IMG/VR virus record: IMGVR_UViG_3300008259_000020
Coordinates: 34,991-98,990 of that record
Source: a virus
Lineage: Duplodnaviria > Heunggongvirae > Uroviricota > Caudoviricetes
Strand: one strand, 5' to 3'
DNA length: 64,000 nt
Both the position numbers and the translations under genes were made by a program. This document shows positions 37,226 through 62,772 of this stretch, one piece after another. The notes beneath the pieces are model-generated. The model made no database searches. It was not told where the DNA came from and saw nothing but the letters and a program-made list of their open reading frames with translations. Each line of letters opens with the position of its first letter. The stretch's first letter is position 1.

Positions 37226-37744
37226 TCAATCACTGATTCTGTTGCCATACATGTCGTAGCAGCGAACAGCATCGAATCCTTCGTCAACAGTAGGGCGAAC
37301 AAAACTATCCATCATTGATTCAATTACATGATCAGGAATAGTTTTGCCTGGACGGCTAGCCATACGGTGCTGCCAATCTTCCCACTGGCTATCACCCGCT
37401 GGCAAGAGGATGCACTCGCACTCAACACGATAGCCAGCGTTACGCATACGATTAATGATCTTACGACGCTTGCCAACACCAAGGTTGGTCTGATCCCAGA
37501 TGACATCCTTACGAAGAGTAACTATCGAGTTCAACTTCCGTTCGTTGAACTCCGTCGCAGCCTTAATGTTTAAAGAAAACGCCTCGTTATAAGTGATGCC
37601 GTTGTCTTCAGCAACCGTATCGATATACATATCGGTGCTGTAGATCCAAGTGTCTTCAGAGATCATTCTCTGAATGAGAGTGCTCTTACCGGTAGCAGGC
37701 AACCCAACCATCACAGTACAAGTAGGCATGTTTTCTCCAATCAA
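37226..37744 (-). CDS. polynucleotide 5'-kinase (T4 Pnk N-terminal kinase-domain homolog, stand-alone)
   Basis: P-loop VMVGLPATGKSTL and DQTNLGVGKRRKIINRMRNAGYRV align with the T4 PseT kinase domain (GCPGSGKST ... SDTNLNPERR...). Confidence 0.65.
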   Translation of the reverse strand: MIGENMPTCTVMVGLPATGKSTLIQRMISEDTWIYSTDMYIDTVAEDNGITYNEAFSLNIKAATEFNERKLNSIVTLRKDVIWDQTNLGVGKRRKIINRMRNAGYRVECECILLPAGDSQWEDWQHRMASRPGKTIPDHVIESMMDSFVRPTVDEGFDAVRCYDMYGNRISD

Positions 37745-37950
37745 TACTTAAAGTTTCCACTCGCTTCGTTATCTTTGAAACCAGTCATATATGCTTCGAT
37801 TTCATTAGGAGTCATACGATCCTCAGGAATTAATTCGCTGGATCCGGTGCCACCAACGTAGTAGTGAGGAACACATGGACGACGGTAGTAACTATCAGCA
37901 CCACCGCGATCGTAGGGTCCACCATGACGTCTATCGTTAGATTGAGACAT
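37741..37950 (-). CDS. small Gly/Tyr/Arg-rich protein (69 aa)
   Basis: ORF between the kinase and phosphatase genes. Confidence 0.35.
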   Translation of the reverse strand: MSQSNDRRHGGPYDRGGADSYYRRPCVPHYYVGGTGSSELIPEDRMTPNEIEAYMTGFKDNEASGNFKY

Positions 37951-37976
37951 TAGGTTATTCCTTTTCTATTTATGTA

Positions 37977-38207
37977 TCAGTGACGAACGAGATGAACGCG
38001 GCCAAGGAGCGTAGCAAGAGCGTATTCGATCGCCTCCATCGCCTGCGCCTTGGTAATGTTATTCGAGTCGTACTGTGACTCTGCGAGTTTAATCAGCTGA
38101 GCGAGTTCTTCATTAGTCATACCGCAGATTGCAGTTTTGACTTCTTCGAGGCTATTAAAGGTAGTCATTGTCGTGTTCCTTTTGTTTCCTACAGATATAG
38201 AATACAC
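37977..38207 (-). CDS. small hypothetical protein (76 aa)
   Basis: ORF. Confidence 0.35.
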   Translation of the reverse strand: MYSISVGNKRNTTMTTFNSLEEVKTAICGMTNEELAQLIKLAESQYDSNNITKAQAMEAIEYALATLLGRVHLVRH

Positions 38208-38239
38208 TGATTCTAAACGAATGTAAATAGAAAAGTTGT

Positions 38240-38701
38240 TTAGAAGTCCTCATCACCTTGGTATACGTTGAAAACAAAGATACCTTCTTCACGCCACATA
38301 CGAACAACTCGCGGACGATCGTCAAACACCATGTCAGGCTTACGGCCGTAGTCAGCAATGATCTCGTCAAGGATTTCACGCTTGACAATATCGTCACCAC
38401 GGAAGTCGTCTGCCTTACGCATGTACAGTTTGGCAGTGTAGTTCCAAAAGCGGTTGTCCTGCAACCACTTCATAGTAGCATCACGACTACGCTCGTTGCG
38501 TCCGCTTGCAAAGATGATTTCGTTACCAGCAGCCTTCAGCGAGTGAAATGCTTCTGCAACATATGGATTCACAGCATCGTTTGGAATACCAGCATCAAAT
38601 GCCTTCCAGTTCTTTGGCTTGCTACGAACGTAGTCCAGCCGGTGTTCGATGTTAGCCAGTGTGCCGTCGATATCAAAAACAACTAGCATTTTATCCCTCA
38701 T
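38240..38701 (-). CDS. polynucleotide 3'-phosphatase (HAD family; T4 Pnk C-terminal domain homolog, stand-alone)
   Basis: VVFDIDGTLA (DxDGT nucleophile motif) and FDDRPRVVRMWREEGIFVFNVYQGD align with T4 PseT VIFDVDGTLA ... [24 protein letters not shown]. Confidence 0.7.
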   Translation of the reverse strand: MRDKMLVVFDIDGTLANIEHRLDYVRSKPKNWKAFDAGIPNDAVNPYVAEAFHSLKAAGNEIIFASGRNERSRDATMKWLQDNRFWNYTAKLYMRKADDFRGDDIVKREILDEIIADYGRKPDMVFDDRPRVVRMWREEGIFVFNVYQGDEDF

Positions 38702-38848
38702 TTTATTACCCTATGTGTGTTTATAGCATAAGGTAAACAGTGTGTCAACCTCAATGCCGATTCTTATCTTTGTTTTGGTGGATTATTTCTTTAACTATCC
38801 ACCAAAACAGTGGAATGTAAGCAACTATCATGGCAATACCGAGTGCCA

Positions 38849-39163
38849 TTATTCTACACGAACCTTGTTTTCGTTGGTAGGAACAAAGTCAAAAGTTTCC
38901 GGAGAACTCCAACGACCCATACCAAACAGGCCTGCAACGCTACCCCATTGGCCTACAAAGCCAGTGTACTTGCCTGATTCATCGCGGCAAAGCAAATCTA
39001 CCTGATTGATAGTAGAGTCACCATTGCCCGAACTAAATTCCCAAGACACAATCTCTTTGCAGGGCTTCGCTGGGTAATAAATGGTTTCTGCTGAAACACC
39101 CGAATACATTAGAATCAGTGCCAGCGTAACAGCAACACGGTGAAGTTTGGTTTTCAGTTTCAT
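38849..39163 (-). CDS. small secreted protein with a signal peptide
   Basis: MKLKTKLHRVAVTLALILMYSGVSA signal-like N-terminus. Confidence 0.4.
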   Translation of the reverse strand: MKLKTKLHRVAVTLALILMYSGVSAETIYYPAKPCKEIVSWEFSSGNGDSTINQVDLLCRDESGKYTGFVGQWGSVAGLFGMGRWSSPETFDFVPTNENKVRVE

Positions 39164-39222
39164 GTTAGTGCCTTTCTATTGCCTATGTATTAATATACGA
39201 CAGTTTAGGATTTTGTCAACTT

Positions 39223-39597
39223 CTATTTGTGCAGTGCAAATTGACGCATGTATTCCAGTTCTTCTTCTTTATAAACAAACACCCACATGCAGGTAACTTC
39301 ACTACGAGTAAACACATCACCGTAGTAGTTGCGGTATGGATATGTAGGATCTGTAGTAAATCCCCAGTGTGCAACATTCATTGAGATCTTGCTCATGACA
39401 TCCATGGGCTCGTGCAAAACTAGTGTAGTACCGAAGTTGCGATCTTCACGCCATGCTATTACAGCATCACGAAATTCAAAAACGTCGGGAATCTGTGAGT
39501 CGAAGTCTGCCTGAGCATGGGCAGCCTGTGCCATAGCCTTACCTGGGTTCATATCCCACAGGTCGCGACGCATAACGATGTAAAATCTTGGTTCCAT
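39223..39597 (-). CDS. peptidyl-tRNA hydrolase, PTH2 family
   Basis: YIVMRRDLWDMNPGKAMAQAAHAQ matches the PTH2 signature (V.R.DL.M..GK.AAQ..HA). Confidence 0.6.
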   Translation of the reverse strand: MEPRFYIVMRRDLWDMNPGKAMAQAAHAQADFDSQIPDVFEFRDAVIAWREDRNFGTTLVLHEPMDVMSKISMNVAHWGFTTDPTYPYRNYYGDVFTRSEVTCMWVFVYKEEELEYMRQFALHK

Positions 39598-39656
39598 TTT
39601 GTCCTCAATAAAAAACCTACACTAACAATATACTGCTAGTGTAGGTGTTTGTCAAG

Positions 39657-40307
39657 TTAAAGTTCTACATCCACATAGTCAAGAATGCCAATACAATGGA
39701 AATGGGTACGTCCGTACTTGTACTGCATGGTTTTGTGCCAATGTCCAAAGTACCATTCTTCAGGCTGATGAATAGCCAACATACGTGTAAATGCAGCACT
39801 GGTACGGTTAGGATATTCGGGTCCTTTGAGCAAACCACTGTTGAAGAACATTTCTCGACTGACAGTGTTTGGACAATCGTGTGTGATCATCACACGTGGC
39901 CGAACAGTGCTGTAAATGTCAATCATACGCTCTAGTTCTTCTTGGCTGAGTTCTTCCTCAGGCCACCAATCATAACCAGCAGTACGCTTGTACCAACCAG
40001 GAGGTGCATCGGGGTTATCAATGCTCCAAGCACCACCGATGAACATTACATCGTTTTCAACAGTACCGTCTTTGATCCAACCGCTCATCTCCTTACACTT
40101 AGAAGGATTGTCGTGGTTGCCACGGATAAAGCGATGATTGCCAGCAGTGTGATAGTCGTTGATGCTTTCGTGCCAGTAGTCACTTTGACCAAAACCTACA
40201 CCGAAGTCGCCGATTTGGATTGTAGGACCTTCGAACCGGTCGATGGCATAGGTTTTATAATCGTTAACCAGTCCATGAATGTCGCCAATTAGTCTTGTCA
40301 GTGTCAT
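39657..40307 (-). CDS. calcineurin-like metallophosphoesterase 2
   Basis: IGDIHG, GDFGVG, GNHD and GHWH motifs. Confidence 0.7.
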   Translation of the reverse strand: MTLTRLIGDIHGLVNDYKTYAIDRFEGPTIQIGDFGVGFGQSDYWHESINDYHTAGNHRFIRGNHDNPSKCKEMSGWIKDGTVENDVMFIGGAWSIDNPDAPPGWYKRTAGYDWWPEEELSQEELERMIDIYSTVRPRVMITHDCPNTVSREMFFNSGLLKGPEYPNRTSAAFTRMLAIHQPEEWYFGHWHKTMQYKYGRTHFHCIGILDYVDVEL

Positions 40308-40317
40308 TTTTATGCCC

Positions 40318-40536
40318 TTATGCGGCTTTGCGTATTTTTTTTGATTTTGTTTCTTTTTTTACAAAATCGTCTCGTGTGATTAGTTCTGCATCAAGTTCAG
40401 GCAATGAAAAAATCATTGCTCTTGCAGTTTTATAATCAAATGCAGTATATGTTCCTCCACCACCAGTTTCGGCCTTTTCGCGCCACGAAACTAGAATTCG
40501 AGTAGGAATAGGTTTTAGATACTCTGACTTTTTCAT
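40318..40536 (-). CDS. hypothetical protein (72 aa)
   Basis: ORF. Confidence 0.35.
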   Translation of the reverse strand: MKKSEYLKPIPTRILVSWREKAETGGGGTYTAFDYKTARAMIFSLPELDAELITRDDFVKKETKSKKIRKAA

Positions 40537-40551
40537 TTCTTTCCTCTTGTA

Positions 40552-40627
40552 TGGAGCTCCCGGAAGGATTCGAACCCTCGACCACCACGTTCGAAGCGTG
40601 GCACTCTGACCGCTGAGTTACGGAAGC
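40552..40627 (-). tRNA. tRNA-Arg (UCG)
   Basis: Acceptor GCTTCCG/CGGGAGC, anticodon arm CCACG-CTTCGAA-CGTGG, T-arm GAGGGTTCGAATCCTTC, CCA. Confidence 0.8.
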
Positions 40628-40639
40628 GTAGTATTTATT

Positions 40640-40715
40640 TGGTGCCCCCGGCAGGAGTCGAACCCACAACCTAGGGAGTAGAAATCCCTTGCTCTTCCAG
40701 TTGAGCTACGAAGGC
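40640..40715 (-). tRNA. tRNA-Arg (UCU)
   Basis: Acceptor GCCTTCG/CGGGGGC, anticodon arm AGGGA-TTTCTAC-TCCCT, T-loop TTCGACT, CCA. Confidence 0.8.
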
Positions 40716-40736
40716 TAAATTTCTGACAACTGACAA

Positions 40737-40806
40737 AGTGCAAAGGGACTCGAACCCTTGTCTCCGACTCCACGCCGGCGTCCTATCCTCTAGACGATAC
40801 ACACGA
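40737..40806 (-). ncRNA. degenerate tRNA-like element (Glu-type D-arm, good T-arm, no acceptor pairing, no CCA)
   Basis: TCGTCTAGAGGATAGGACG D-arm (compare E. coli tRNA-Glu), T-arm AAGGGTTCGAGTCCCTT, no foldable anticodon stem and no 3' complement. Confidence 0.3.
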
Positions 40807-41081
40807 TCATTGCAGCACTTTTCTATATCTCGACAACGACATCGAAGTTACTGCAACAAAAGGTCAGTTGCCACGGTGGTTGCCGCCACCTATTCTTTAT
40901 CTCTTATTTATTTCTTGTGTATACTATACATGATCTTTTCACGCATGTCAACGCATATACAGCACCAGCAGCTTATATGTTTAGTTTTCTTGCCACGCAT
41001 GTTGACGTTTGCCGAGGCGGCGCGGTGGGGCGGGCCGATGATCTGCTGGAACAGTTTATCTCGAGAAACACTGAACTCAGC

Positions 41082-41600
41082 CTATTCTAATTCGTCTTCG
41101 AATGGGTATCTTCTCACTGCTAGCAATTTTCTAACAGGATATGCACTAAAGTTAACACTGTTATCTTGATTTCCACCAAGCACCAAATAGTATTCTTGAC
41201 CATTGTGATAGGTTGAAGTTACAAAGAATCCAACATGACCTTTCCAATTGGCATTGCCACGCTTAAACACAACAACATCACCTGATTCTGGTTCGTCTAC
41301 TTCTACGCCCCAATCAAGAAAACTTCTTGCCAGTAGAGGATGTTCTGCATATTCATCAGACCCAGGTAATCCAGTTTCTGCAAGCACTGCATTTACAAAT
41401 GCAGCACACCATTCAGTGGCAACTGGATCAACACCGATAAAATCTTTTATTTCTGCTCTATGACTCTTTTCACTCCACCCTAGTTTTTCTGTTGCAGCAA
41501 CCAATGGTTCTGGCGGTGTCGGTGAAGTAGTAAACAATTGAATTTTTGCACAAGCAGATACTGATAGTAACAGTACTGTTAGTAACATAGCCCTCATCAT
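41082..41600 (-). CDS. secreted CHAP/NlpC-P60-type cysteine peptidase (candidate endolysin or cell-wall hydrolase)
   Basis: Signal peptide MMRAMLLTVLLLSVSACA. Catalytic-type Cys in TEWCAAFVNAVL and His in GHVGFF. A TATAAATA late-promoter-like motif sits just upstream. Confidence 0.5.
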   Translation of the reverse strand: MMRAMLLTVLLLSVSACAKIQLFTTSPTPPEPLVAATEKLGWSEKSHRAEIKDFIGVDPVATEWCAAFVNAVLAETGLPGSDEYAEHPLLARSFLDWGVEVDEPESGDVVVFKRGNANWKGHVGFFVTSTYHNGQEYYLVLGGNQDNSVNFSAYPVRKLLAVRRYPFEDELE

Positions 41601-41648
41601 AAAAATATTTATAGAATAGGTCTAGATAGAAATAGTACAGTTTAACTT

Positions 41649-41724
41649 TGGCACTCCCGGCAGGACTCGAACCTGCAACAATCACCTTCGTAGGGTGGCG
41701 CTCTTCCAGTTGAGCTACGGAAGT
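41649..41724 (-). tRNA. tRNA-Arg (ACG)
   Basis: Acceptor ACTTCCG/CGGGAGT, loop CTACGAA, T-arm GCAGGTTCGAGTCCTGC, CCA. Confidence 0.75.
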
Positions 41725-41730
41725 ATCGTT

Positions 41731-41805
41731 TGGTACCGTGTATAGGATTTGAACCTATTCCGACGCAGTCACAGTGCGGTATGCTACCCTTACACCAAGC
41801 ACGGC
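41731..41805 (-). tRNA. tRNA-His (GUG)
   Basis: Loop CTGTGAC, T-arm ATAGGTTCAAATCCTAT, CCA. The acceptor has one terminal mismatch. Confidence 0.65.
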
Positions 41806-41812
41806 ATTATTC

Positions 41813-41887
41813 TGGTTGCCCCTACTAGATTTGAACTAGTGACCTATCCCTTATCAGGGGATTGCTCTACCACTGAGCTAAGAGGCA
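41813..41887 (-). tRNA. tRNA-Ile (GAU)
   Basis: Acceptor TGCCTCT/AGGGGCA, anticodon arm ATCCC-CTGATAA-GGGAT, T-arm ACTAGTTCAAATCTAGT, CCA. Confidence 0.8.
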
Positions 41888-41988
41888 ATATTCATTGTTT
41901 AGAAGATACACTGACCAATACCATTTCTGGTCCGATAGGTTTATTTTATGTGGCGGCCTAAATGCCACTCAGTGTATCATCAAACCAA

Positions 41989-42064
41989 TGGTGAACCGGG
42001 TGGGATTCGAACCCACGTACTCCGATTAAAAGTCGGGTGCTAAAACCACCTCAGCTACCGGTCC
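41989..42064 (-). tRNA. tRNA-Lys (UUU)
   Basis: Acceptor GGACCGG/CCGGTTC, loop CTTTTAA, T-arm GTGGGTTCGAATCCCAC, CCA. Confidence 0.75.
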
Positions 42065-42123
42065 ACGTTTCGTTTGTCGCTTTCTTCTTTGTTACGTTTT
42101 CGTTTCATTTTTGTTCCTTGAAT

Positions 42124-42201
42124 TGGTGTACCGGGTGGGAGTTGAACCCACGACCTTCGGATTAAGAGTCCGCGGCTCTAACCTGGCTGAGCTACCGGTG
42201 C
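42124..42201 (-). tRNA. tRNA-Lys (CUU)
   Basis: Anticodon arm GCGGA-CTCTTAA-TCCGA, T-arm GTGGGTTCAACTCCCAC, CCA, long D-loop. Confidence 0.75.
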
Positions 42202-42220
42202 ATTAATAGTTGTATGTTTG

Positions 42221-42664
42221 TTAGTTACACCACGACTGCTTTTTGTCGCCGTAGTATTCTCTAGCATAACCTTGTTCAATAAGCATCTGTGTTAGGCTCT
42301 TACCGTCGATAAGAACATCACCTAGCACTCTGCCGCCGAACTTGTCCCACTCATAAAATACAATTTGAGTAGTCTTGGCTTTTGCAACTAAATCTTTTGT
42401 AAATTTACTTGCAGCATCACCCATGTCGCCTTCTTTTTTACATTCTGCTCTGCCACCTTTTTCAGGTGTATCTACGCCCCATACACGAAGTGATAGTTTC
42501 TTCGGAAGTGGATCTAGCAAGAACTTTGCTTCAAATTCAACTGTATCACCATCTACTACACGTAGAATTTTTAAGTCGTGTGCTACACCAGTTGGCTTTT
42601 TTACTTCAGCAAATGCAGTGGATGCAGCAACAATCAGTGCTACAGTTAAAAGTATTTTTTTCAT
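42221..42664 (-). CDS. secreted staphylococcal-nuclease (SNase/thermonuclease) homolog
   Basis: Signal peptide MKKILLTVALIVAASTAFA. ILRVVDGDTVEF and RVWGVDTPEK match the SNase Ca-site and active-site boxes. Confidence 0.7.
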   Translation of the reverse strand: MKKILLTVALIVAASTAFAEVKKPTGVAHDLKILRVVDGDTVEFEAKFLLDPLPKKLSLRVWGVDTPEKGGRAECKKEGDMGDAASKFTKDLVAKAKTTQIVFYEWDKFGGRVLGDVLIDGKSLTQMLIEQGYAREYYGDKKQSWCN

Positions 42665-42709
42665 TATGTTCTCCTAAATACTAGAATATTTATAACAAAA
42701 AAACAATTA

Positions 42710-42785
<76 letters not shown>

Positions 42786-42791
42786 ATATTT

Positions 42792-42876
42792 TGGTGGGAG
42801 AGGAGGGAATCGAACCCGTCCGTGCGTTGCCGCGATGGAGTTACAGTCCACTGCCTCACCTTGAGGCGTCTCTCCC
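42792..42876 (-). tRNA. tRNA-Tyr (GUA), type II (bacterial-type long variable arm)
   Basis: Acceptor GGGAGAG/CTCTCCC, loop CTGTAAC, long variable arm, T-loop TTCGATT, CCA. Confidence 0.8.
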
Positions 42877-42882
42877 TTATTT

Positions 42883-42959
42883 TGGTAGGACATACGGGTT
42901 TCGAACCCGTTTCTCCGCCTTGAAAGGGCGGCGACCTTCGCCAAGAAGTCCAATGTCCC
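42883..42959 (-). tRNA. tRNA-Glu (UUC)
   Basis: Acceptor GGGACAT/ATGTCCT, anticodon arm CCGCC-CTTTCAA-GGCGG, T-arm ACGGGTTCGAAACCCGT, CCA. Confidence 0.8.
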
Positions 42960-42965
42960 ATAGTT

Positions 42966-43040
42966 TGGTGATGTAGGCTGGATTCGAACCAGCAACCTAC
43001 GGCGTATGAGACCGTTGCACTACCGTTGTGCTACCACATC
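42966..43040 (-). tRNA. tRNA with CAU anticodon (Met or Ile2/lysidine)
   Basis: Acceptor GATGTGG/CTACATC, anticodon arm ACGGT-CTCATAC-GCCGT, T-arm GCTGGTTCGAATCCAGC, CCA. Confidence 0.8.
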
Positions 43041-43046
43041 ATTGTT

Positions 43047-43130
43047 TGGAGGTCGGTATGTGAATCGAACACATTACTTTGCAGTGCTATGGAGTTGCAG
43101 TCCATCCCCTTACCATCCGGGCCACCGACC
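43047..43130 (-). tRNA. tRNA-Cys (GCA)-like with an atypical 14-nt extra (variable) region
   Basis: Perfect acceptor GGTCGGT/ACCGACC, anticodon arm ATGGA-CTGCAAC-TCCAT, then AGCACTGCAAAGTA before T-arm ATGTGTTCGATTCACAT, CCA. A long variable arm is not expected for Cys. Confidence 0.55.
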
Positions 43131-49684: not shown

Positions 49685-49935
49685 CGTTTACCCTGATAAC
49701 GTAGATCAAAAATTTTATCTCTTACACGATTATTATACCAATTACGGTCTTGCTTGTCAAGCAGTGTAAGTAGATATTCAAGATCTTCGTCGCTTAACGC
49801 CACATCAACTGCGGATTCTGCTAACACAGTATAACCTCGGTTTTTTAATTCTTCCACTATTTCGTTGTCGTCGAACTCATCGAGATCTACGTCAACGTCT
49901 ACATATGTTTCAATTGTTTTAACAGCCATTTTCAA
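49681..49935 (-). CDS. small acidic protein (84 aa)
   Basis: ORF. Confidence 0.35.
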   Translation of the reverse strand: MKMAVKTIETYVDVDVDLDEFDDNEIVEELKNRGYTVLAESAVDVALSDEDLEYLLTLLDKQDRNWYNNRVRDKIFDLRYQGKR

Positions 49936-50554
49936 TTACCTTCTTTTTGATGGTTTTGTATAATCCTGGGTTTACTTTTAATGCGTGTGGCATTAGTTCA
50001 TGTCTAATATAGTTTCTTGTGTACTTGATATCCGCATTGCTAGGATCTTCAACATACGGTACCGTGTGCATATTAGACCACAAGGCAATATCACGTTTCA
50101 TATTTAATCTAAACGGACGGATAACGTTCTTTCTACGATACGGTACAATTTTACCAGTACCGTGCAGCGAACTAAAGATCCAAGTTTCCACGCAGTCATC
50201 CAAGTGATGTCCTGTAATCACAGGTGCGTCTGTAAATAGGTCCAAGAACTCGTAGCGTTTTTCTCGCCAAAATTCTTCATGACTCATATCTTTTGGCTTG
50301 TCTTCACGAATCTTACCGCCGATAAATTTGATATCGTTTTTAATACAGTAGTCATCAACAAAGTCTAGAGTGTACATAGAATTGCTGGTTCTATGATCAA
50401 AATGTAATACAGTTACATCATGATTGTTTTGTAGAAAATTTAAAATTGCCATACTATCAATGCCGCCGGAGCAGGCAAGATATACTTTGCGGGGGAGTTT
50501 GCCTTGGATCTTAATCATATTTTTTATTATAAGGCATAGACCGCAATTGGACAA
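49919..50554 (-). CDS. tilS: tRNA(Ile)-lysidine synthetase (TilS) catalytic-domain homolog (PP-loop ATPase)
   Basis: PP-loop LACSGGIDSMAIL, HHLDDCVETWIF (compare TilS HHxDDQAET), RPFRLNMKRDI and EDPSNADIKYTRNYIRHELMP (compare TilS D.SN.d....RN.IR..llP). Confidence 0.65.
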   Translation of the reverse strand: MSNCGLCLIIKNMIKIQGKLPRKVYLACSGGIDSMAILNFLQNNHDVTVLHFDHRTSNSMYTLDFVDDYCIKNDIKFIGGKIREDKPKDMSHEEFWREKRYEFLDLFTDAPVITGHHLDDCVETWIFSSLHGTGKIVPYRRKNVIRPFRLNMKRDIALWSNMHTVPYVEDPSNADIKYTRNYIRHELMPHALKVNPGLYKTIKKKVIENGC

Positions 50555-50655: not shown

Positions 50656-50868
50656 TCAAGTGGCTTGGTCATCTTTGTCATCGTGTTTAAGAATAATCAT
50701 ATTGTCACCGCTGCCAACTGTTTTAAGATAGCCATCTTTAGCAAGGCTATCAATGGTAGTAGAAACAGACTGTTCAACCAGATCGTAGTTTGCTTTTGTA
50801 CGACCCACTGAATATCCAAACAGTGTAAACACAACTGCGGTACCGAAGATGAAAGATTCAACAACCAT
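50656..50868 (-). CDS. small membrane protein (70 aa)
   Basis: N-terminal TM segment. Confidence 0.35.
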   Translation of the reverse strand: MVVESFIFGTAVVFTLFGYSVGRTKANYDLVEQSVSTTIDSLAKDGYLKTVGSGDNMIILKHDDKDDQAT

Positions 50869-51572
50869 TATTTTTCCTCAATATATGAAAGTTTAACGTA
50901 ATTCAATTTAGTCATCGGCAACCGAGTGTCATACTCGATCTCATGCTTTTTGGCTTTTGCCCTTATACTATATTTACTGCCGATTTCGTATTTTTTGTCT
51001 TTGTTAAAATGCACAAGATTGCCGCCAACACCAGCAATATAACTGTAAAGATTGTAGTCTTTGAGATAAAACGAACGAAGGATTTCCAGTTCGCCTGAGA
51101 TTGAACTGTCAACGTTATAATGCACAGAATCAACAAAATCAGTTTTGAGACGACGACGGTAAGCAAGATCGTGCAGTTCTCGTTGAATCATTGCAGGAAC
51201 ATAAGCAACAAAGCCTACATTCTTAGGTGTACATTCTTCGCTGCTAAACGCAGCAAACGTATCACGCTGAAACTGACTGAGATCGTTGCCAATCATAAGA
51301 AACGTGTAACGCTTGAAATGACTGCGGGCAGATTCTAGAGCAGCAACATCTTCATTCGTAACTTCAACAGGCTCGAACTGTTCAGGAACCCAGTGATTCT
51401 TGCTGCCTTCGCTGATGGCCTTGAGAGCAAACATAAACTTGATAGCATCCTTGTTGCCCCAAAAGGAAACATTGCCATCCTTATCGTATACAGTTTCTTT
51501 GTAGTAGTTTTTGTTGATACGATAGATAGCAAATGATAGTTTAAGTGCTTCATCAGTTGAAAACGTATCCAT
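50868..51572 (-). CDS. hypothetical protein (234 aa)
   Basis: ORF. Confidence 0.4.
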   Translation of the reverse strand: MDTFSTDEALKLSFAIYRINKNYYKETVYDKDGNVSFWGNKDAIKFMFALKAISEGSKNHWVPEQFEPVEVTNEDVAALESARSHFKRYTFLMIGNDLSQFQRDTFAAFSSEECTPKNVGFVAYVPAMIQRELHDLAYRRRLKTDFVDSVHYNVDSSISGELEILRSFYLKDYNLYSYIAGVGGNLVHFNKDKKYEIGSKYSIRAKAKKHEIEYDTRLPMTKLNYVKLSYIEEK

Positions 51573-51632
51573 AGCCGCCTCGTTGTGTGCCTACATGTTC
51601 AACATACAACAAGACGCACGGGTTGTCAATCT

Positions 51633-52517
51633 TTATTTTTTTTTGTTAACTTCGAACAATTTAGGATCTAGTTCTTTTTTCTTTTTTCTGTCTTTGCGCC
51701 AGCCTTCGCGCATTTTTTCTCTCTTGGCAAGTTCTTCTGCTTCTGGACTCTTTGGAGTAGGATCTGGCAAAGCCTTGACTGAGTCCAGTGTAGGAACAAA
51801 TGCATCATAGGCATTTTTATTCATCTCAAACCCAACAAATTTTCTTCCATAGCGTAGTGCGGTTCTGGCTGTGGTAAATCCTCCGCAGAACGGATCCATC
51901 ACAACATCGCCTCTGTTGCTGCTGTAAAGAACAAATTTTTCAATAAACGATTCGTTGAGTTGATTCTTGTTTTTCAATTGTCCAGGATTATGAGCCCGAG
52001 GCATGTCCTGCACTGTAAGACGGTCGTGATAACTGTCTTTTTGATCTGTGAAATAAACATTACTGTTGAATGTTCTTGTTTGCTTGCCCTTATCGGGCTT
52101 TTGCCAAAACAGAATGTGATAGTGACTGCTGACCCACTTGTTTTTTGTACTCACACCAAAACTGTATTTTGCAATGATATGATTGACTTCTTTCAAGTCA
52201 GTGCTGTGCAATGCATTTAGAATATGATGAAGGTTTGTATAACCACTTACAATATAGATACTGCCGCCCGGACGTAGTACTCTAGCACATTCGCCGATCC
52301 AGTCTTTGCTAAACTGTGCATAGGTTTCTAAAGGAACGTCCACATACCCAGGTACAACAAAACTTTCGTCACGATGATAGTGAGCGTCCAGTTTGTCGCC
52401 GTCAATACCGTAAGGCGGATCTGTAAAAATAAGATCCACGTTGCCATCGGCAACGTGGTCTTTGATTCCTGTAATGCAGTCTTGATTATAGACCTGGAAT
52501 GTCATTGCGAATTGCAT
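51633..52517 (-). CDS. DNA methyltransferase, beta-class (N6-adenine or N4-cytosine)
   Basis: Motif IV DLIFTDPPYG comes before motif I VMDPFCGGFTTARTALRYGRKFVGFE, the permuted order typical of M.PvuII/ParB-MTase-type enzymes. Confidence 0.7.
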   Translation of the reverse strand: MQFAMTFQVYNQDCITGIKDHVADGNVDLIFTDPPYGIDGDKLDAHYHRDESFVVPGYVDVPLETYAQFSKDWIGECARVLRPGGSIYIVSGYTNLHHILNALHSTDLKEVNHIIAKYSFGVSTKNKWVSSHYHILFWQKPDKGKQTRTFNSNVYFTDQKDSYHDRLTVQDMPRAHNPGQLKNKNQLNESFIEKFVLYSSNRGDVVMDPFCGGFTTARTALRYGRKFVGFEMNKNAYDAFVPTLDSVKALPDPTPKSPEAEELAKREKMREGWRKDRKKKKELDPKLFEVNKKK

Positions 52518-53046
52518 CCATAATTAGTTGCTTTAGATTATTATTATACGTGTTTTCACAAAGGATACGACCAGAAACTTCCGTAATTGCTGCTTTGGGT
52601 ACTTTAACAACAACACCGTCGCCTTGAACTTTGGCATGTTTCAACACTGTCTTTTTGTCGAGAACAAAAGCACCGTCGTTGCGTACTACAATCACACAAT
52701 CTGCTACATGTGATTCGGGCAAGGTTTTGTTCTTGTTGGTGCCATTTGTGTTGCTTAGTTTTACTTCGTAGTTTTTACGTAGACTACCATCTTTTTTGTA
52801 CATATTATCGCTGAGTTGACTTTTTAATTCAACGTCGATGTTGTGTTTTGGCCAAACGTAATCTCTGTGATCTTCACCGACATATTTTAGATTATTGTTT
52901 GAGTGTGTTTCTACTGTTAGTTCTGCAATCAGACCTTTGAGAAATCTCCATTGTGCATCATTAAAGTCTTCAAGAGAGTTTCCATATTCAACAATTCCTT
53001 GCCAATTAAACGCCTTTAGATCTGTTAGGATTTCTGTGTTTAGCAT
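52486..53046 (-). CDS. hypothetical protein overlapping the MTase start by 32 nt
   Basis: ORF; no clear nuclease motif. Confidence 0.35.
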   Translation of the reverse strand: MLNTEILTDLKAFNWQGIVEYGNSLEDFNDAQWRFLKGLIAELTVETHSNNNLKYVGEDHRDYVWPKHNIDVELKSQLSDNMYKKDGSLRKNYEVKLSNTNGTNKNKTLPESHVADCVIVVRNDGAFVLDKKTVLKHAKVQGDGVVVKVPKAAITEVSGRILCENTYNNNLKQLIMDAIRNDIPGL

Positions 53047-53095
53047 TGTATGTTCCTTTAAATTTTAATAAGTATAACATCAATTTATCATGGTG

Positions 53096-53641
53096 TCAAG
53101 ACAAAAACAACCTAAAGTGATCTGCTAGGGTCATAGTTGTGTCTACTGATACACCGTCGTGAGTTACAAACAGATTTGCTGTATCAAAGCAATACTGATA
53201 GCGGCACCAAAAGTTATAGATATCTGGTGTGCGGCTAGCCCAACCCTTTTCACGTAGCAGTGTGTCTTTTTCTACGCTGATACGTGCTGTGGGCATATTG
53301 CAAGCCTGTGTAGGAGTAATTACACCAGCCAACAATAGATCTCGAACGGTGCTGTTAGGAACCATGTGTTCAAAAATTCCGTTGCCTTCGAGCCCTACTT
53401 CAACGTAGTGTGCGCCAAAGTTTTCTTTGATGCAGTAGCCATGATAACGCCGCAGTGCATTGTCGATATCATCACGAATCAAACGATAAGTCTGTTCATC
53501 GTTTTTGGTATTATGATACAGGTAAACAAGACGAGTAAGATTGTTAGTAACGTATGCTGCCGTAGCAGCATACGATTCTAGGTTACGTTTAGTGCGAACA
53601 TATACAGGTTCGCGAAAACGTTCAATTGCTTCTTTGAGCAT
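53096..53641 (-). CDS. hypothetical protein (181 aa)
   Basis: ORF. Confidence 0.35.
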   Translation of the reverse strand: MLKEAIERFREPVYVRTKRNLESYAATAAYVTNNLTRLVYLYHNTKNDEQTYRLIRDDIDNALRRYHGYCIKENFGAHYVEVGLEGNGIFEHMVPNSTVRDLLLAGVITPTQACNMPTARISVEKDTLLREKGWASRTPDIYNFWCRYQYCFDTANLFVTHDGVSVDTTMTLADHFRLFLS

Positions 53642-54700
53642 TTAAGCAGCCTTTTTAGGAAACAGTCCAGGAGCAGGATTTTCAGCAAGTTGAAGTTTTG
53701 CACCGTCGCCGTGGTAAGGAAGGTTGAGTTTGCCGCCGTTGATTATGTACAGTTCACGAATGAAGTTAGACATAATGTTTGGTGCATCCCAACCGCGACC
53801 CGGCGAAACATAACTCACTTGCAGTTTTGCTTTTTCTTTGAACAAAGAACCATTAACCGAAGTACTGCGATTGAATGTTTGTGCAATGGTTTGCAGAACT
53901 TCTAGCATCCAACCATCAGGCAGTTCCTGACGACTATCAAGACGGCTCAGTTCATATAGCCCGATGTACAAGTCTTGGTTAACTTCTTCGTCGTGTTTGT
54001 ACACAGTTACAATTGCATTGAGAATACTGTCAAGGGTTTTGCCGCTCTTGTCAACGTCGATGCCTTTGTAGGCATATGCAAAGTGTGAAAAGAAGTAATC
54101 GTTGGATCCGCGCAATTTAACACTACGACGAGTGCCTTTGTCTTCAAGATCAATTCCGTTCTCATCAAATTGATCCTGCATAGTACGAGCCTTGAAGTTC
54201 TTTTCTTCGGTACTGCCAAGTTTGTAACGAGTAAGAGCGTTACGATGCAGATCGCCGGGGCTCAGTTTCTTAACACCAGACTCGTTGAGTTCTTCAAATG
54301 CATAACTAGGAAATGCAGGGTCGTCGGTGTTTACAACAGTGCAAGGAACATGTTCGTAGCCAAGCAATGCAGTTGCAATAGTACGGTGTTGCCCGTCATA
54401 GGTTAGAATTTGTTTTGCACCATTCACACGGCAAGCAGATGCAGGTGTGCAAAGACGAGGATCATATTTTTTAAGAATGGTAATGATGTGTTTGATGATT
54501 ACATCACGTTGAACTTCGTAGTCAATCCAAAGTTCGTTGATTGGAACAAGTTTTCCACCTTCGGGAAATTTATGTCCGTTGACATCTACACGATTACGAA
54601 AGATCGCAAGATTTTCATCTTTGATAGCAAAATTGGCAGCAAGATCGACTTTGACGTCGGCAATTATATCCGTAAGTTTACGGGTCGCACGTTTGTTCAT
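53642..54700 (-). CDS. DGQHR-domain protein (DndB/DpdB-like, ParB-fold)
   Basis: ILTYDGQHRTIATALLG contains the literal DGQHR hallmark of the DndB/DpdB ParB-like family. Confidence 0.55.
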   Translation of the reverse strand: MNKRATRKLTDIIADVKVDLAANFAIKDENLAIFRNRVDVNGHKFPEGGKLVPINELWIDYEVQRDVIIKHIITILKKYDPRLCTPASACRVNGAKQILTYDGQHRTIATALLGYEHVPCTVVNTDDPAFPSYAFEELNESGVKKLSPGDLHRNALTRYKLGSTEEKNFKARTMQDQFDENGIDLEDKGTRRSVKLRGSNDYFFSHFAYAYKGIDVDKSGKTLDSILNAIVTVYKHDEEVNQDLYIGLYELSRLDSRQELPDGWMLEVLQTIAQTFNRSTSVNGSLFKEKAKLQVSYVSPGRGWDAPNIMSNFIRELYIINGGKLNLPYHGDGAKLQLAENPAPGLFPKKAA

Positions 54701-54787
54701 TTATTTTCTCCATTGAACAATTCAACTGCTAGGAGCACAATGCCCTTCGCTTTAGTTAATATAAACGATGATTAGTCTGTTGTCAAG

Positions 54788-55003
54788 TTAAATTCTAAAC
54801 ATAATTCTGCCTTTGTCAAGATCGTATGGTGTCATTTCAATTTTAACACGATCACCTTGTACCAGGCGAATTTTGAACTGGCGCATTTTGCCTCCAGTAT
54901 AACAGGTTACTCTATGCCCGTTTTCTAATTCAACACGAAATGTTTGATTGGGCAGTACCTCTATGATACTGCCTTCTAATTCTAATATATCTTCTTTAGC
55001 CAT
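54788..55003 (-). CDS. infA: translation initiation factor IF-1
   Basis: [71 protein letters not shown] is collinear with E. coli IF-1 ([69 protein letters not shown]). Confidence 0.85.
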
Positions 55004-55178
55004 TCTCTACCTTGGATATAGCGACGCCACCTTCTTCTAACACTTCAATCTTTAAGACGTCGCCTGGTTTCCAGCCCAACTGTTCAGCAATTTCCTGAGG
55101 AATATTCATTAACACGTTCTCAGGGTCGCCGTTGATGTCTTGAAACACTTCTTCAACTGAATACGTTTTATTTACCAA
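54996..55178 (-). CDS. AbrB/MazE (SpoVT-AbrB) fold small protein
   Basis: [33 protein letters not shown] fits the swapped-hairpin antitoxin/AbrB consensus. Overlaps infA by 8 nt. Confidence 0.45.
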
Positions 55179-56688: not shown

Positions 56689-56928
56689 ATGATTTGGATA
56701 GATTATAATATAACTCAAGCCGGCGGCAATTTTAGAGTCGAAGGTGAATGGCCTGGAGAAGTTATGGGGCTCGACAGACAGGGCAATCCCGGAAACAAGA
56801 AACGTCCGTTGTATCAACCCGGTGATGTTTTTATAGTTAACAAGGATGGGTGGCTTGTTAAACAAGAAGAATTGACATCACTGATGTTAACATATGAGAG
56901 TAAAAAATCTACTTTGTCAGGGCAATAA
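56689..56928 (+). CDS. hypothetical protein (79 aa)
   Basis: ORF after the terminator; its end overlaps the convergent cyclase gene. Confidence 0.3.
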   Translation: MIWIDYNITQAGGNFRVEGEWPGEVMGLDRQGNPGNKKRPLYQPGDVFIVNKDGWLVKQEELTSLMLTYESKKSTLSGQ

Positions 56929-58951
56929 ACACGCCATTCCAATCTGCTGGCAATGTTTGCGTTTTCATGTATTCACAACGTTCAATCCACATATCGTAGT
57001 ATTTTTCCATTTTGCCGTCAAATGCTCTGCGAATTAAATTACACTGTTCTATTGCTTCATCAAACTGTTTCATACGATATAGTTTGTGCATTTGATCATG
57101 ATGTTTTTTACTGGTTTTCCATGTTGGTTTAACATCGTCTAATACAGTATAGATAGCAACACCTACAGTTTTACCTTTAACTGCTAAGTCATCTACTTTG
57201 AGGAAGAAGAATTCGTCTTTGCACTGTTCTACTGTAGCGCCACCCACGAGTAATAAGCAGCCGTATTCTTTACATTTTGATTCGATTCTTGCGGCGGTGC
57301 TGACTGCGTCTCCAAGTACGTCGTAACTGTGACGTTTGGTTGACCCCATTTCTCCGATGTATCCGAGACCTGTGTTGATTCCGGCGCCCATGCCAACTGG
57401 TGGTCTTCCTTGGGGTATGATGACTGTTTCATTAAAATTCTCTACTGCTCGTAACATTTTTAAACCAGTAGCAACTGCTGTCTTTGCATGTTCAGGATCG
57501 TCTACTGGTGCATTGTGTATATGCATACTTGCATCACCGATATATTTAATAATCATACCGTTTGCATCTAGCACAGGCTGTGTGATAGCATCCATGTATC
57601 CATTCATTATTTTAGTAAGTCCTGCAACATCGTCGCCGAAACTTTCACCTAATGGTGTAAAGCCACGTAAATCGCTAAACAGTATGCTTACTTCTTTCTT
57701 CATGCCTTTCTTGACAAGATCTGGGTTTGTTTGCAATAACTTAACTACGGCAGGTGATGCATATCCTTCGAACTGTTTCTTGATTGCTTGCTTTTGTAAG
57801 AACTCACTTACAAATTTGATTACATAACGTATAATACCTACAAGCAATAGAAACGCCGCAGGTAAAAATCCATCAATCAAGAAGTTGTAGGTAGCAAAGG
57901 CATAGATGCTACCACCGATTGACCCACCTACAAGTATTACAAAAATGCCAATGCCCGCATAAGTCCAACGTGCAGCAACTATTAGTGCTAATCCGGCAAG
58001 TACAAATGCTAATAATTCGGCACCTGGTGACCATGCAGGGCGTTCTATGTTACTTGCATTAAACACTGTGCCTAACATCATAGCCTGTAGTTCATGTGGC
58101 CACACGCCGCCTTTGGCTGTTGCAATTGGTTGTGTAATGCCAGCCGCAGTAGGACCTACAAATACTATACCTCCGGCAAAGTCTGCAGGTAGTTCTGCTG
58201 CACTGTGACTGCTAAAGCCTTGACTCCAGTCTAACCATACTCTACCAAGTCCATCAGTTTGTAGTACACCGTATTGCGGAATTCGTAATTTGTCAACTCC
58301 CAACGGTGATAATTTGATTTGGAAACTAGGATCCCCTGCTAGAACTCTAAGCACTTCCATAGTAACGTTAGGGTATAGTATTCCTCCACTTTCTAGTACT
58401 AGCGGAGCACGTCTGACAACTCCATCAATTTCTGGAAAGGTATTGATAATTCCTGACCCAACTGCTGCATTTTCAATGGCAGGCACGTTTGCTGTGATGC
58501 CAGGCACGGCAGGGATAAGATCAATAAAGTCACTATTAATGATACTAGCACCAGGGTTGATTGGTTCATTTTTATTTTCCTCAGTTCCTAACATTGTAAC
58601 TACAACAGGATAATTACCCATAGTAGTTGATAGTATCCTGTCTTGTCCTGCTCTGTCTGTTTCGCTCATCAACACGTTAAACACAACTAGTCCTGCGCCA
58701 CGTGCATATAGATCCTCTATTAGTTTAGCATAATCGCCTCTTGGCCAAGGCCACTGACCGCGAGCAGTAATACTTGCTTCATCTATATTAACTGTATAAA
58801 TGTTATTTTCTACAGGTGCTTGATTTACTATCAACTGATCAAAATATCGTAAACGTAGACTTTCCAAAAAATCAGGGTTACTGAACTGTAACCAGCCCAA
58901 CAACCCTAAAATTACAATGCTCCAAACAGGTGATAATAACAGTTTTTTCAC
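56909..58951 (-). CDS. CHASE2 sensor-domain class III adenylate/guanylate cyclase
   Basis: N-terminal signal/TM, then a periplasmic CHASE2-like region, three TM segments, then the cyclase core ILFSDLRGFTPLGESFGDD...IKYIGDASM...GINTGLGYIGEMGS...VLGDAVSTAARIES (metal-binding Asp and transition-state residues in the canonical CHD arrangement). Confidence 0.7.
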   Translation of the reverse strand: MKKLLLSPVWSIVILGLLGWLQFSNPDFLESLRLRYFDQLIVNQAPVENNIYTVNIDEASITARGQWPWPRGDYAKLIEDLYARGAGLVVFNVLMSETDRAGQDRILSTTMGNYPVVVTMLGTEENKNEPINPGASIINSDFIDLIPAVPGITANVPAIENAAVGSGIINTFPEIDGVVRRAPLVLESGGILYPNVTMEVLRVLAGDPSFQIKLSPLGVDKLRIPQYGVLQTDGLGRVWLDWSQGFSSHSAAELPADFAGGIVFVGPTAAGITQPIATAKGGVWPHELQAMMLGTVFNASNIERPAWSPGAELLAFVLAGLALIVAARWTYAGIGIFVILVGGSIGGSIYAFATYNFLIDGFLPAAFLLLVGIIRYVIKFVSEFLQKQAIKKQFEGYASPAVVKLLQTNPDLVKKGMKKEVSILFSDLRGFTPLGESFGDDVAGLTKIMNGYMDAITQPVLDANGMIIKYIGDASMHIHNAPVDDPEHAKTAVATGLKMLRAVENFNETVIIPQGRPPVGMGAGINTGLGYIGEMGSTKRHSYDVLGDAVSTAARIESKCKEYGCLLLVGGATVEQCKDEFFFLKVDDLAVKGKTVGVAIYTVLDDVKPTWKTSKKHHDQMHKLYRMKQFDEAIEQCNLIRRAFDGKMEKYYDMWIERCEYMKTQTLPADWNGVFIALTK

Positions 58952-61677: not shown

Positions 61678-62772
61678 TTACTCCTGTTGATTGATATTAA
61701 TTGTATTATTTCCTACACCTATCCTATATCCGTATATACTAAATCCATTTTGAACCACACCCAGTGTATACCCATATCCTTGACTTAACATTAAATCAAT
61801 CATATGAGAATTTTCGCTTCTTCTAAAAATATTATTAGGCGGAACCTCGTCATAAAATATTCCTGTTTCAGGATCCAATCCTAAAAACTTTTCTTCAAAA
61901 AACGCAGTATTTTGTGTGTCTAGTTCGCTTAATAACTTTTGCATCACTTCTTTCATCACTGCTGTCAGTTGATCTACAAACACTTCGTTGAGATATGTGT
62001 TTGTATCCAAGTCTGTTACCCATATATTTTTAATACCCTCCACAAGCGGATCCTTGTCTAATTCATCAAAAGCCAAAAAGTCTATGTCTAGTAAATCAAC
62101 TGCTGGCTGTGCATCTTCTGCTGCTTCGTCATAAGGATCAACTCGTCTAACAATCAGCATACTACGAAGCATGTCTTCGGGCAGTTCTAATATTACAGGT
62201 GGTTTAGGTACCATACCGTTATGAGCAACCACTGTGGTCTGAAAGGCTTGATTCATTATAACTATACCTTCGTCTGTTTCAACAGTTATTTCGCCAACCA
62301 CGCACATGCCAGCAGTGTTGCAACTTGGCAACAGTGTAACCATACTGCCGCCGATTTCGTCTACAATCATCATAAAGTCTGTTCCACGTACACCGATAGT
62401 TGCACTTGGTGTTTCGATATTAACATTTTGTCTGCTGTTCTTAGCAATAGCGCCACTGGCATAACGAACAGCACCTAGCGTTGCTCGCATACTCAATTCA
62501 CCAGTACCACTGTTAGGATCATACACAAACTCATCAATGACCATGCGGCTGTGTTCAGTAACATCAACACGAGTATCGTCCGCAAACTGTAATTGCATAC
62601 GACCGTTGGCAGTAGCAATTGTATCTTGCATTTCGAGTCCTACACCTTGTTCTCCGAGTATCTCTGTGGACTCACGCTTAACAATACCACTGCCATCGAT
62701 GGTTGCTATTTCGCCTACATTGGCATATGCGGTATTAGCTATCAACAGCAATGGTATAATATATTTCAGCAT
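61678..62772 (-). CDS. periplasmic FecR-domain protein with a C-terminal curlin-like motif
   Basis: Signal peptide MLKYIIPLLLIANTAYA. FecR-type beta-sandwich pattern GEIATIDGSGIVKRE...MQDTIATANGRMQLQFADDTRVDVTEHSRMVID. C-terminus VQNGFSIYGYRIGVGNNTININQQE. Confidence 0.4.
   Translation of the reverse strand: MLKYIIPLLLIANTAYANVGEIATIDGSGIVKRESTEILGEQGVGLEMQDTIATANGRMQLQFADDTRVDVTEHSRMVIDEFVYDPNSGTGELSMRATLGAVRYASGAIAKNSRQNVNIETPSATIGVRGTDFMMIVDEIGGSMVTLLPSCNTAGMCVVGEITVETDEGIVIMNQAFQTTVVAHNGMVPKPPVILELPEDMLRSMLIVRRVDPYDEAAEDAQPAVDLLDIDFLAFDELDKDPLVEGIKNIWVTDLDTNTYLNEVFVDQLTAVMKEVMQKLLSELDTQNTAFFEEKFLGLDPETGIFYDEVPPNNIFRRSENSHMIDLMLSQGYGYTLGVVQNGFSIYGYRIGVGNNTININQQE

Follow-up and report, generated by a model that had tools for sequence, protein, structure and literature searches.

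A conserved ParB/Srx-fold gene pair and a possible restriction-modification unit in an uncultivated T4-like phage

We analyzed four neighboring open reading frames (ORFs), here lettered A, B, C and D, on the minus strand of a 64,000-nt stretch (the window) of the viral record IMGVR_UViG_3300008259_000020. A and B form a conserved, translationally coupled pair across a large clade of uncultivated aquatic T4-like phages, with contigs of up to ~350 kb. Within the DGQxR group of ParB/Srx proteins, A represents a new, divergent branch, and B, its partner, has a pattern of invariant residues that looks like an active site. C carries a putative PD-(D/E)xK signature, and D is a beta-class DNA methyltransferase. 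The original prediction had read all four genes as one co-directional cassette. The ORFs were indeed present in the ORF list where it had placed them. They do share a direction, but this is uninformative, because nearly all genes of the window lie on the minus strand, and a single cassette is doubtful: a promoter-like site separates B from C, and synteny splits A+B from C+D. Our tentative preference, held at somewhat under an even chance, is for two adjacent units. One would consist of a nucleoside triphosphate (NTP)-gated A and a nuclease-like B, resembling a split GmrS/GmrD; the other, C+D, would be an accessory unit that resembles a restriction-modification system.

A and B form a fixed pair

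Using A as the query, we collected 80 loci from IMG/VR, which come from related phages and are partly redundant. B was found downstream of A, on the same strand, in all 80. In the window the TAA stop codon of A directly abuts the ATG of B, and from locus to locus the identity of A to its window counterpart rises and falls with that of B (r = 0.69). The pairing reaches divergent A-like proteins: at locus L093, an A-like protein of ~20–24% identity is followed by a B of 41% identity. With >1000 relatives of A, some on contigs as long as 270–350 kb, A+B ranks among the more widespread gene pairs of this phage group that lack annotation. The papers that we found describe no fixed A+B pair in phages.

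The gap between A and B measured at most 60 nt in 24 loci and ~290–1070 nt in 56, where it holds inserted ORFs. These inserts belong to at least six unrelated families (e.g. L025:7041-7462, L023:1175-1529 and L001:11055-11486). Two families carry HNH-type motifs, DIHHRDGNHRN...CxxCH and DRINNxxGYxxxNV, and the L001 insert gave a weak Pfam HNH match. Judged by such motifs, the A|B junction looks like a hot spot for mobile endonuclease genes. Freestanding endonuclease genes of T4-like phages often lie between conserved genes, and we read the inserts as typical of junctions of that kind.

A is a divergent ParB/Srx-fold protein

The literal DGQHR pentapeptide of A lies within ILTYDGQHRTIATALLG (residues 98–114) and had been taken to mark the DndB/DpdB-type family. 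A contains, in order, Q64-R65, D102-G-Q-H-R106 and F135-E-E-L-N139. These correspond to the QR pair, DGQHR and FxxxN by which the DGQHR domain is defined, a trio that is also found in GmrS/DUF262 (PMC4619093). An indexed search with A returned 1050 relatives, the best 120 of them matching along the full length with at least 58% identity. All relatives were metagenomic (marine or freshwater), on contigs of up to 269 kb, and none carried a Pfam domain. When 30 diverse homologues of the >1000 were aligned, Q64-R65, D102-G103-Q104, F135 and N139 were among many invariant residues, and many of the invariant positions were polar and spread along the entire length of the protein. Invariance of D102, G103 and Q104 indicates that the DGQ core is no chance match. 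The fourth position of the pentapeptide was Q in most relatives, so the family motif is DGQ(Q/H)R and the literal DGQHR is only one variant of it; a few members had DGQQH. The family consensus around the pentapeptide reads YDGQQRSIATALLG.

The N-terminal domain of A is similar in three dimensions to the ParB N-terminal domain and to Srx structures (figures listed for A: KorB 7.7, PadC 7.5, SerK 7.4 and SbnI 7.1). No structural match was found for the helical C-terminal half. Curated models placed A in no family. There was no Pfam match at E ≤ 0.1, only weak matches to PHROG ParB profiles (6e-5 and 5e-3), only a spurious SerK match in NCBIfam at E ≤ 1, and none to the PADLOC Dnd/Dpd models. Searches of the PDB with the single sequence and with narrow and broad profiles gave nothing meaningful. 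A hidden Markov model (HMM) comparison with PF14072 (DndB) and TIGR03187 (DGQHR), proposed as a check on the original prediction, yielded no significant match for A; one of 30 relatives matched PF14072 at E = 0.0059, below the gathering threshold. PF03235 (DUF262) matched neither A nor the 30 relatives in Pfam searches.

An identity as a partition ParB was also considered and rejected, since A has no match to ParB_N (PF02195), to a helix-turn-helix (HTH) domain or to a dimerization domain. A is thus not the ordinary partition homolog that had been named as part of what would refute the earlier view. Pfam scans of the window ORFs and precomputed Pfam lists of related loci contained no ParA-type family.

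Short spacing between DGQHR and FxxxN is characteristic of DndB-type proteins, and A has it too. A shares with DndB/DpdB (PF14072/TIGR03187) the ParB/Srx fold and all three motifs, but it fails the family models and its own family consensus is DGQQR. Nor does A have dndCDE or dpdA/dpdC neighbors: no such partner gene appeared in scans of the window or in called-gene Pfam lists covering ~130 related loci. Conversely, dnd and dpd clusters have no counterpart of B, the fixed neighbor of A. The motif trio stands, whereas membership of the DndB/DpdB family does not.

For GmrS, we compared A by hhalign with 24 sequences from the supplement of PMC4619093. The FxxxN block aligned with P = 1.3e-4 (probability 54%) and the DGQQR block with P = 0.003, in the correct order, versus 0.15–0.84 for mismatched controls. 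GmrS has a long helical insert between DGQQR and FxxxN, which A lacks. We place A in the DGQxR group of ParB/Srx proteins as a new, divergent branch; it is neither a demonstrable member of DndB, DpdB or DUF262 nor a partition ParB.

B has a candidate active site

Relatives of B numbered 162 by indexed search and 138 by an exhaustive HMM search of 1.84 billion representatives. Those from the exhaustive search were nearly all stand-alone proteins of 180–200 aa, and no fusion to a ParB-fold domain was seen among the 138. B had no match in Pfam, NCBIfam, PADLOC or PHROG, Pfam scans of 30 B sequences and 34 wider relatives gave only noise, and narrow and broad sequence profiles found nothing meaningful in the PDB. 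The predicted structure is confident, with a pLDDT (predicted local distance difference test) of 94, and consists of a long helical hairpin followed by a small alpha/beta domain. A TGT-like or nuclease fold had been suggested as something to look for in this model; Foldseek against the PDB returned nothing at E < 0.001. Because B has a confident model and no solved neighbor, characterizing it would give function to a new family.

Six columns are invariant in B down to ~15–25% identity (Y79, H92, P95, R147, Y148 and H175), and R64, E91 and P117 are nearly so. This pattern looks like an active site. The likeliest role of its Glu-His, Tyr, Arg-Tyr and His residues is in a phosphodiesterase site based on a metal or on histidine. 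Part of the pattern resembles GmrD. In the B motif I-F-E-H-M-V-P-N, the stretch F-E-H-x-V-P fits the first GmrD motif, (I/L/V)(E/D)H(I/L/V)xP, and from residue 49 the model runs alpha, beta(beta), alpha, alpha, beta, alpha, which is the published GmrD pattern (PMC4619093). Residues of the metal-ligand range (D, N, H or E) occupy position 126, on the helix that follows the second strand, in ~31 of 34 superfamily members. We hypothesize that B is a His-Me (GmrD-like) protein.

C and D resemble a restriction-modification unit

None of the 66 relatives of C was annotated, and C itself had no match in Pfam, NCBIfam, PADLOC or PHROG and no meaningful match in sequence and profile searches of the PDB. 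The original prediction had described the 181- and 186-aa proteins, B and C, as uncharacterized; both are indeed unmatched in these libraries, and both are real conserved families. An alignment of C with 19 homologues, down to 21% identity, contained eight invariant columns, including E42, D62, E73 and K75. The candidate motif E42...D62...E73-x-K75 is spaced like that of PD-(D/E)xK nucleases.

We also considered a PvuII-like identity for C, prompted by a shared ELKS around the catalytic Lys and by the beta-class partner. It was dropped after an hhalign comparison of C with a PvuII sequence gave P = 0.22. The idea that C+D is compositionally foreign was dropped as well, overall GC and GC at third codon positions being unremarkable.

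D matched PF01555 (E = 1.3e-31; 110.7 bits versus a cut-off of 26.7) and PADLOC MTase_II (E = 4.5e-81). Matches to the CcrM and YhdJ models, at ~1e-27, were below their cut-offs. The FTDPPYG motif (around residue 33) comes ahead of DPFCGGFTT (FxGxG; around residue 208), and with DPPY N-terminal to FxGxG the enzyme belongs to the beta class. The earlier assignment of D as a permuted-motif N6A/N4C methyltransferase is thereby borne out. D is probably adenine-specific, to judge from DPPY and from public sources, which name it an adenine-specific methylase. Since it is at most 31% identical to methylases of cultured phages and plasmids, no specificity can be transferred to it. The D gene also contains, 60–80 nt past its start, a perfect 10-bp inverted repeat with a 3-nt loop, CCACGTTGCC GAT GGCAACGTGG. 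A scanner classed this repeat as terminator-like in both orientations; it may be a regulatory hairpin or have arisen by chance.

As had been noted originally, the end of C overlaps the start of D, and the overlap measures 32 nt. It is conserved across lineages with 40–50% GC. The B–C spacer contains the promoter-like site mentioned above (Table 1); in loci L091 and L092 the –35 box, a correctly spaced TACAAT and the Shine–Dalgarno element are all kept, by consensus match only.

Through C we collected 38 IMG/VR loci, seven of which have D directly after C. C followed by D, overlapping or within ~40 nt, occurs in the window, in these seven loci and at L002–L006, L087/88 and L091/92. The C-then-D order stands without A+B at L002–L006, L087, L088 and L096–L105; of these, L002/L003 belong to a phage of 50% GC, and at L087/L088 the unit is flanked by ClpP and ligase. 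D is 74–80% identical across lineages in which A is 26–56% and C 43–59% identical. A different methylase of PF01555/Eco57I type, 338–347 aa long, adjoins C at L106–L110, L120 and L121 and lies ~1.5 kb away at L101. Overall, a PF01555-type methylase of one or the other family lies within ~2 kb of C in ~15 of the 38 loci. C is sporadic across genomes, and C and D move together or apart.

Small type II restriction-modification systems with a beta-class methylase include virus-encoded examples in chloroviruses. C+D is like them in that C, a short protein with a putative PD-(D/E)xK signature, lies upstream of and overlaps a beta-class DPPY methylase, and in that the two genes move between lineages as one unit. 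It differs in that C has no detectable similarity to solved or annotated restriction enzymes and often has no neighboring methylase. If the comparison holds, C+D would be a further case of a tailed phage with a restriction-modification-like unit.

In roughly half of the loci with C, the surrounding 6 kb contain no DNA methylase, which counts against this reading, being awkward for a true restriction enzyme. It would suit a free-standing selfish (homing-type) endonuclease or a methyl-directed repair nuclease, whose adjacency to D is incidental or secondary. The patchy distribution of C points the same way, as do its varied neighbors (ClpP/ligase, S21/exonuclease, epimerase, UvdE/FEN) and the HNH endonuclease-like genes in the same neighborhood. 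At the loci lacking a methylase, the neighbors of C include an epimerase, an AAA ATPase, 2-oxoglutarate oxygenases and an exonuclease. Yet a methylase within ~2 kb at ~15 of 38 loci is far above our own rough estimate of 1–3 methylase genes per several hundred phage genes, and the 32-nt C/D overlap, kept over lineages of 40–50% GC, also counts against this alternative. We regard a selfish or repair role for C as quite improbable.

Links between the two units

In several lineages, C-like genes lie directly upstream of A-like genes (L047, L100, L112, L114–L118, L120 and L121). In the L114–L116 lineage the junction between them is a 2–3 nt gap or a 4-nt overlap. The A-like proteins beside C-like genes keep only Q64, R65, D102, N139 and A171, and their pentapeptide is DAQHT, DGQQS or DGFHH. 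The orders C-D-x-A' (L002 and L099) and A-B-x-C-D (L004) also occur, and the 338–347-aa methylase family stands just after B in ~8 of the A loci (L025, L027, L028, L030, L032, L042, L044 and L048). ParB-fold domains are often fused to N6_N4 methylases in phages, where such fusions are enriched, and to HNH domains in bacteria (PMC12704722).

All of this would fit a single four-gene system, in which an A-like ParB-fold protein serves as sensor or loader for interchangeable effectors of nuclease type (B and/or C), together with a self-marking methylase. Such a system would be an unfused, expanded relative of the phage ParB-methylase fusions and of the DUF262-nuclease enzymes. As in the phage fusions of ParB-CTPase-fold and N6_N4 domains (PMC12704722), a ParB-fold protein and a PF01555 methylase are close together here, and the D-type or the second methylase family recurs near A+B. 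Unlike in those fusions, the two proteins have a gene each, separated by two further genes and a promoter-like site, and most A+B loci have no methylase nearby. Within 6 kb of A, C was absent from 79 of the 80 A loci and a D-type methylase from all 80, and most had no PF01555-type methylase of any kind there. C, for its part, is often far from any A-like gene, and the promoter-like site between B and C also speaks for separate units.

The adjacency itself has another possible source. The cross-linked loci fall within a block of DNA-repair and replication genes, where UvdE and a 5'-3' exonuclease stand beside the C- and A-like genes. As the loci are related and partly redundant, part of the adjacency may reflect synteny inherited with this DNA-metabolism block (UvdE, FEN, ligase) or insertion at a common hot spot. 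A functional tie between A-like proteins, C-like proteins and methylases is possible; a single four-gene system is unlikely, though far from negligible.

A working model for A+B and C+D

We return to the model of two adjacent units. The analysis shows the structure of the genes, the fold of A, the motifs, the synteny statistics and the class of the methylase; NTP binding, nuclease activities, substrates and biological role are inferred, as follows. A would bind an NTP and DNA through its ParB/Srx domain, B would supply a His-centered catalytic site, and the NTP state of A would gate a nuclease-type activity of B or a DNA-processing step. The target of B would be DNA, probably that of the host or of a competitor. 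C+D would act as an accessory unit behind its own promoter-like site. In keeping with restriction-modification logic, D would methylate adenines, marking phage DNA, and C would cut unmarked DNA.

GmrSD is a type IV restriction system, and SspE and BrxU are further enzymes of the DUF262+DUF1524 kind. Like A and B, GmrS and GmrD also occur as two separate proteins (PMC4619093). GmrSD is found in bacterial defense islands, whereas A+B is a phage-encoded pair present clade-wide.

Besides the C loci that lack a methylase, several points weigh against the model. HMMs assign A neither to DUF262 nor to DndB, and B neither to DUF1524 nor to HNH; for B, no match to HNH or DUF1524 was found in 64 members. 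B lacks the second GmrD motif, L(G/A)NLxLLxxxN, conservation of N115 does not extend to the wider B family, and B has an extra invariant Tyr, Arg-Tyr and His. The hhalign comparison of B with 30 published GmrD sequences was weak (P = 0.007, probability 5%) and covered the EHxxP block only. Some A-like branches have lost the arginine of DGQHR (DGQQS, DAQHT, DGFHH), and not all members may therefore bind an NTP. Finally, such strong clade-wide conservation of A+B looks more like that of a core replication or expression function than of a conflict system.

Conservation like that of a core gene would also suit a regulator. Here A would be a non-catalytic, NTP-switched DNA clamp or transcription regulator like DndB, KorB and Noc, with B as its cofactor, and the pair would control phage expression or DNA organization without cleavage. 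Published accounts describe DndB as an ATP-dependent repressor and many ParB-fold proteins as CTP or ATP switches (PMC12704722; PMC4507180), and the long helical hairpin with which B starts is typical of interaction modules. Three observations run the other way: A has no HTH or other DNA-binding domain match, many of its polar residues are invariant over the whole length, and the residues of B that survive to 15–25% identity are His, Tyr, Arg and Glu, which fit catalysis better than scaffolding. A purely regulatory role is, in our view, rather unlikely.

The kinds of ingredient in the two-unit model are all known (a ParB/Srx DGQxR protein, a possible His-Me partner, a PD-(D/E)xK signature and a beta-class methylase), and the families of A, B and C match no curated model. 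If A does gate a nuclease-like partner, the ParB/Srx NTP switch, whose known use lies in bacterial defense enzymes (GmrSD, SspE and BrxU) and in methylase fusions of phages, would also operate in a conserved phage enzyme made of two proteins. More speculatively, A-like ParB-fold proteins, interchangeable nuclease-type partners (B and/or C families) and an optional self-marking methylase might together make up an unrecognized phage-borne, NTP-gated DNA-discrimination system. It would be conserved in an abundant aquatic clade of jumbo T4-like phages and aimed at the DNA of the host or of competing phages. We think this broader proposal unlikely.

A proposed DNA hypermodification module

The original prediction raised a deazapurine-related modification module. 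In its general form, this would be a hypermodification or anti-restriction module for 7-deazaguanine or phosphorothioate, with A acting like DpdB or DndB and with B and C as new modifying enzymes. The DGQHR-type motif trio of A and the weak DndB match of one relative (E = 0.0059) accord with it, as would an IscA-type Fe-S protein (PF01521) and a PP-loop ATPase encoded in the window. The Fe-S protein had been correctly predicted. Its two proposed companions had not: Pfam scans of ~60 window ORFs found no QueD-like PTPS and no radical S-adenosylmethionine (SAM) enzyme, and the ORF presumed to be the candidate B12-radical SAM gene matches UvdE. The same scans contained no QueC, QueE, FolE, TGT/DpdA or Dnd (DndC/D/E) protein, and a CxxxCxxC motif was absent from the 42 ORFs checked.

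The PP-loop protein is a TilS N-domain (114 bits versus a curated cut-off of 93.6), which in a genome with 30 tRNA genes points to tRNA biology. We therefore dropped the PP-loop ATPase and IscA as support for DNA thiolation or deazapurine synthesis. A itself fails the DndB and DGQHR HMMs, as described above.

Palindrome counts over the whole window (1-64000) were compared with a maximal-order Markov expectation. AGCT was strongly avoided, with 34 copies observed and 178 expected (observed/expected 0.19). Likewise, GCATGC (0 versus 8.3), GTGCAC (2 versus 17.5), TGCGCA (0 versus 5.8) and CTGCAG (8 versus 26) were depleted, and GATC, with 268 copies, was unavoided. Such avoidance suggests selection by host type II restriction enzymes. 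Strong site avoidance is what one would expect of DNA open to cleavage by ordinary type II enzymes, and so it argues, not decisively, against global hypermodification. Taken with the missing pathway genes, it makes a hypermodification module very improbable. The literal DGQHR motif is no evidence for phosphorothioate or deazapurine chemistry in this phage.

Genome setting

Coordinates of the four genes and of other features are collected in Table 1. The window appears to come from a T4-like phage of very large size. Library scans found a gp9/10-type baseplate protein, an ATP-dependent DNA ligase, ClpP, UvdE, a polynucleotide kinase-phosphatase, an Rnl1-type RNA ligase, IF-1 and a TilS N-domain protein. 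A 297-kb contig encodes exactly identical A, B and C proteins, each labeled 'hypothetical protein'. The lineage has no cultured relative. The DNA ligase of the window is at most 36% identical to that of any cultured phage, tblastn with A, B and C and megablast of the region found no match among 50,697 cultured phage records, and no relative of A turned up when 185,579 species genomes were scanned in a pattern-limited way.

Table 1. Positions of genes and other features in the window
Feature	Position	Strand	Description
A	53642-54700	-	352 aa; ParB/Srx-fold protein with helical C-terminal domain
B	53096-53641	-	181 aa; obligate partner of A; helical hairpin, then small alpha/beta domain
C	52486-53046	-	186 aa; putative PD-(D/E)xK-type signature
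D	51633-52517	-	294 aa; beta-class N6_N4 DNA methyltransferase, probably adenine-specific; start overlapped by C end
Sigma-70-like promoter	53071..53099	-	TTGACA-N17-TATACT with TG extension, in the 49-nt B–C spacer; 11 of 12 consensus matches; AAAGGA Shine–Dalgarno next
Sigma-70-like promoter	54758..54786	-	TTGACA-N17-TATATT upstream of A; consensus match only
Second sigma-70-like promoter upstream of A	54792-54819	-	Consensus match only
Sigma-70-like promoter	51601..51629	-	TTGACA-N17-TATGTT just past D; begins next unit (234-aa ORF, 50868-51572); consensus match only
Sigma-70-like site	50526-50554	-	Near-consensus TTGACA-N16/17-TATAxT
Inverted repeat	52436-52458		Inside D gene
IF-1 homologue	54788-55003		
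MazE/AbrB-type protein	54996-55178	-	60 aa; SpoVT-AbrB fold
PP-loop protein	49919-50554		TilS N-domain only
IscA-type Fe-S protein	14857-15222		PF01521
UvdE	15857-16927		
Small ParB-type ORF	24013-24465	-	Up to 150 aa
tRNA genes	23926-43130		30 genes in two blocks
AAA_33 kinase-like protein	37226-37744		Placed by N-terminal sequence
HAD_PNKP phosphatase	38240-38701		Placed by N-terminal sequence
Adenylate/guanylate cyclase	56909-58951	-	680 aa; CHASE2 sensor
FecR-domain protein	61678-62772	-	

Near-consensus TTGACA-N16/17-TATAxT sites recur ahead of successive small gene groups (17 versus 11.5 ± 2.9 in shuffles), which suggests many short early-type transcription units, read by host sigma-70. 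Just upstream of IF-1 and A lies the gene for the small MazE/AbrB-type protein, and the order MazE-like, IF-1, A, B, C, D is also kept at L091.

The window contains a second small ParB-type ORF, with YQVIDGHHRYFAFREMN. We take it to be the source of a ParB_N match (E = 7e-7) in a pooled scan, since no other pooled ORF has a DGxHR-type motif. This ORF overlaps tRNA-Leu(caa) at its 5' end, and translation therefore probably begins at an internal start.

Among the remaining genes are some that are unusual in a phage, namely signaling and envelope genes: the CHASE2-sensor cyclase, the FecR-domain protein and a CsgG-family (curli secretion channel) match from the pooled Pfam scan of window ORFs. 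A DNA and RNA repair set comprises UvdE, the AAA_33 kinase-like protein and the HAD_PNKP phosphatase, and the pooled scan also matched a T4 Rnl1-type RNA ligase. Taken as a whole, the set resembles a tRNA-repair pathway. The PP-loop protein with its TilS N-domain, IF-1 and the 30 tRNAs make up a large translation toolkit. Two of the tRNAs have a CAT anticodon, and one of these may be a lysidine-dependent tRNA-Ile.

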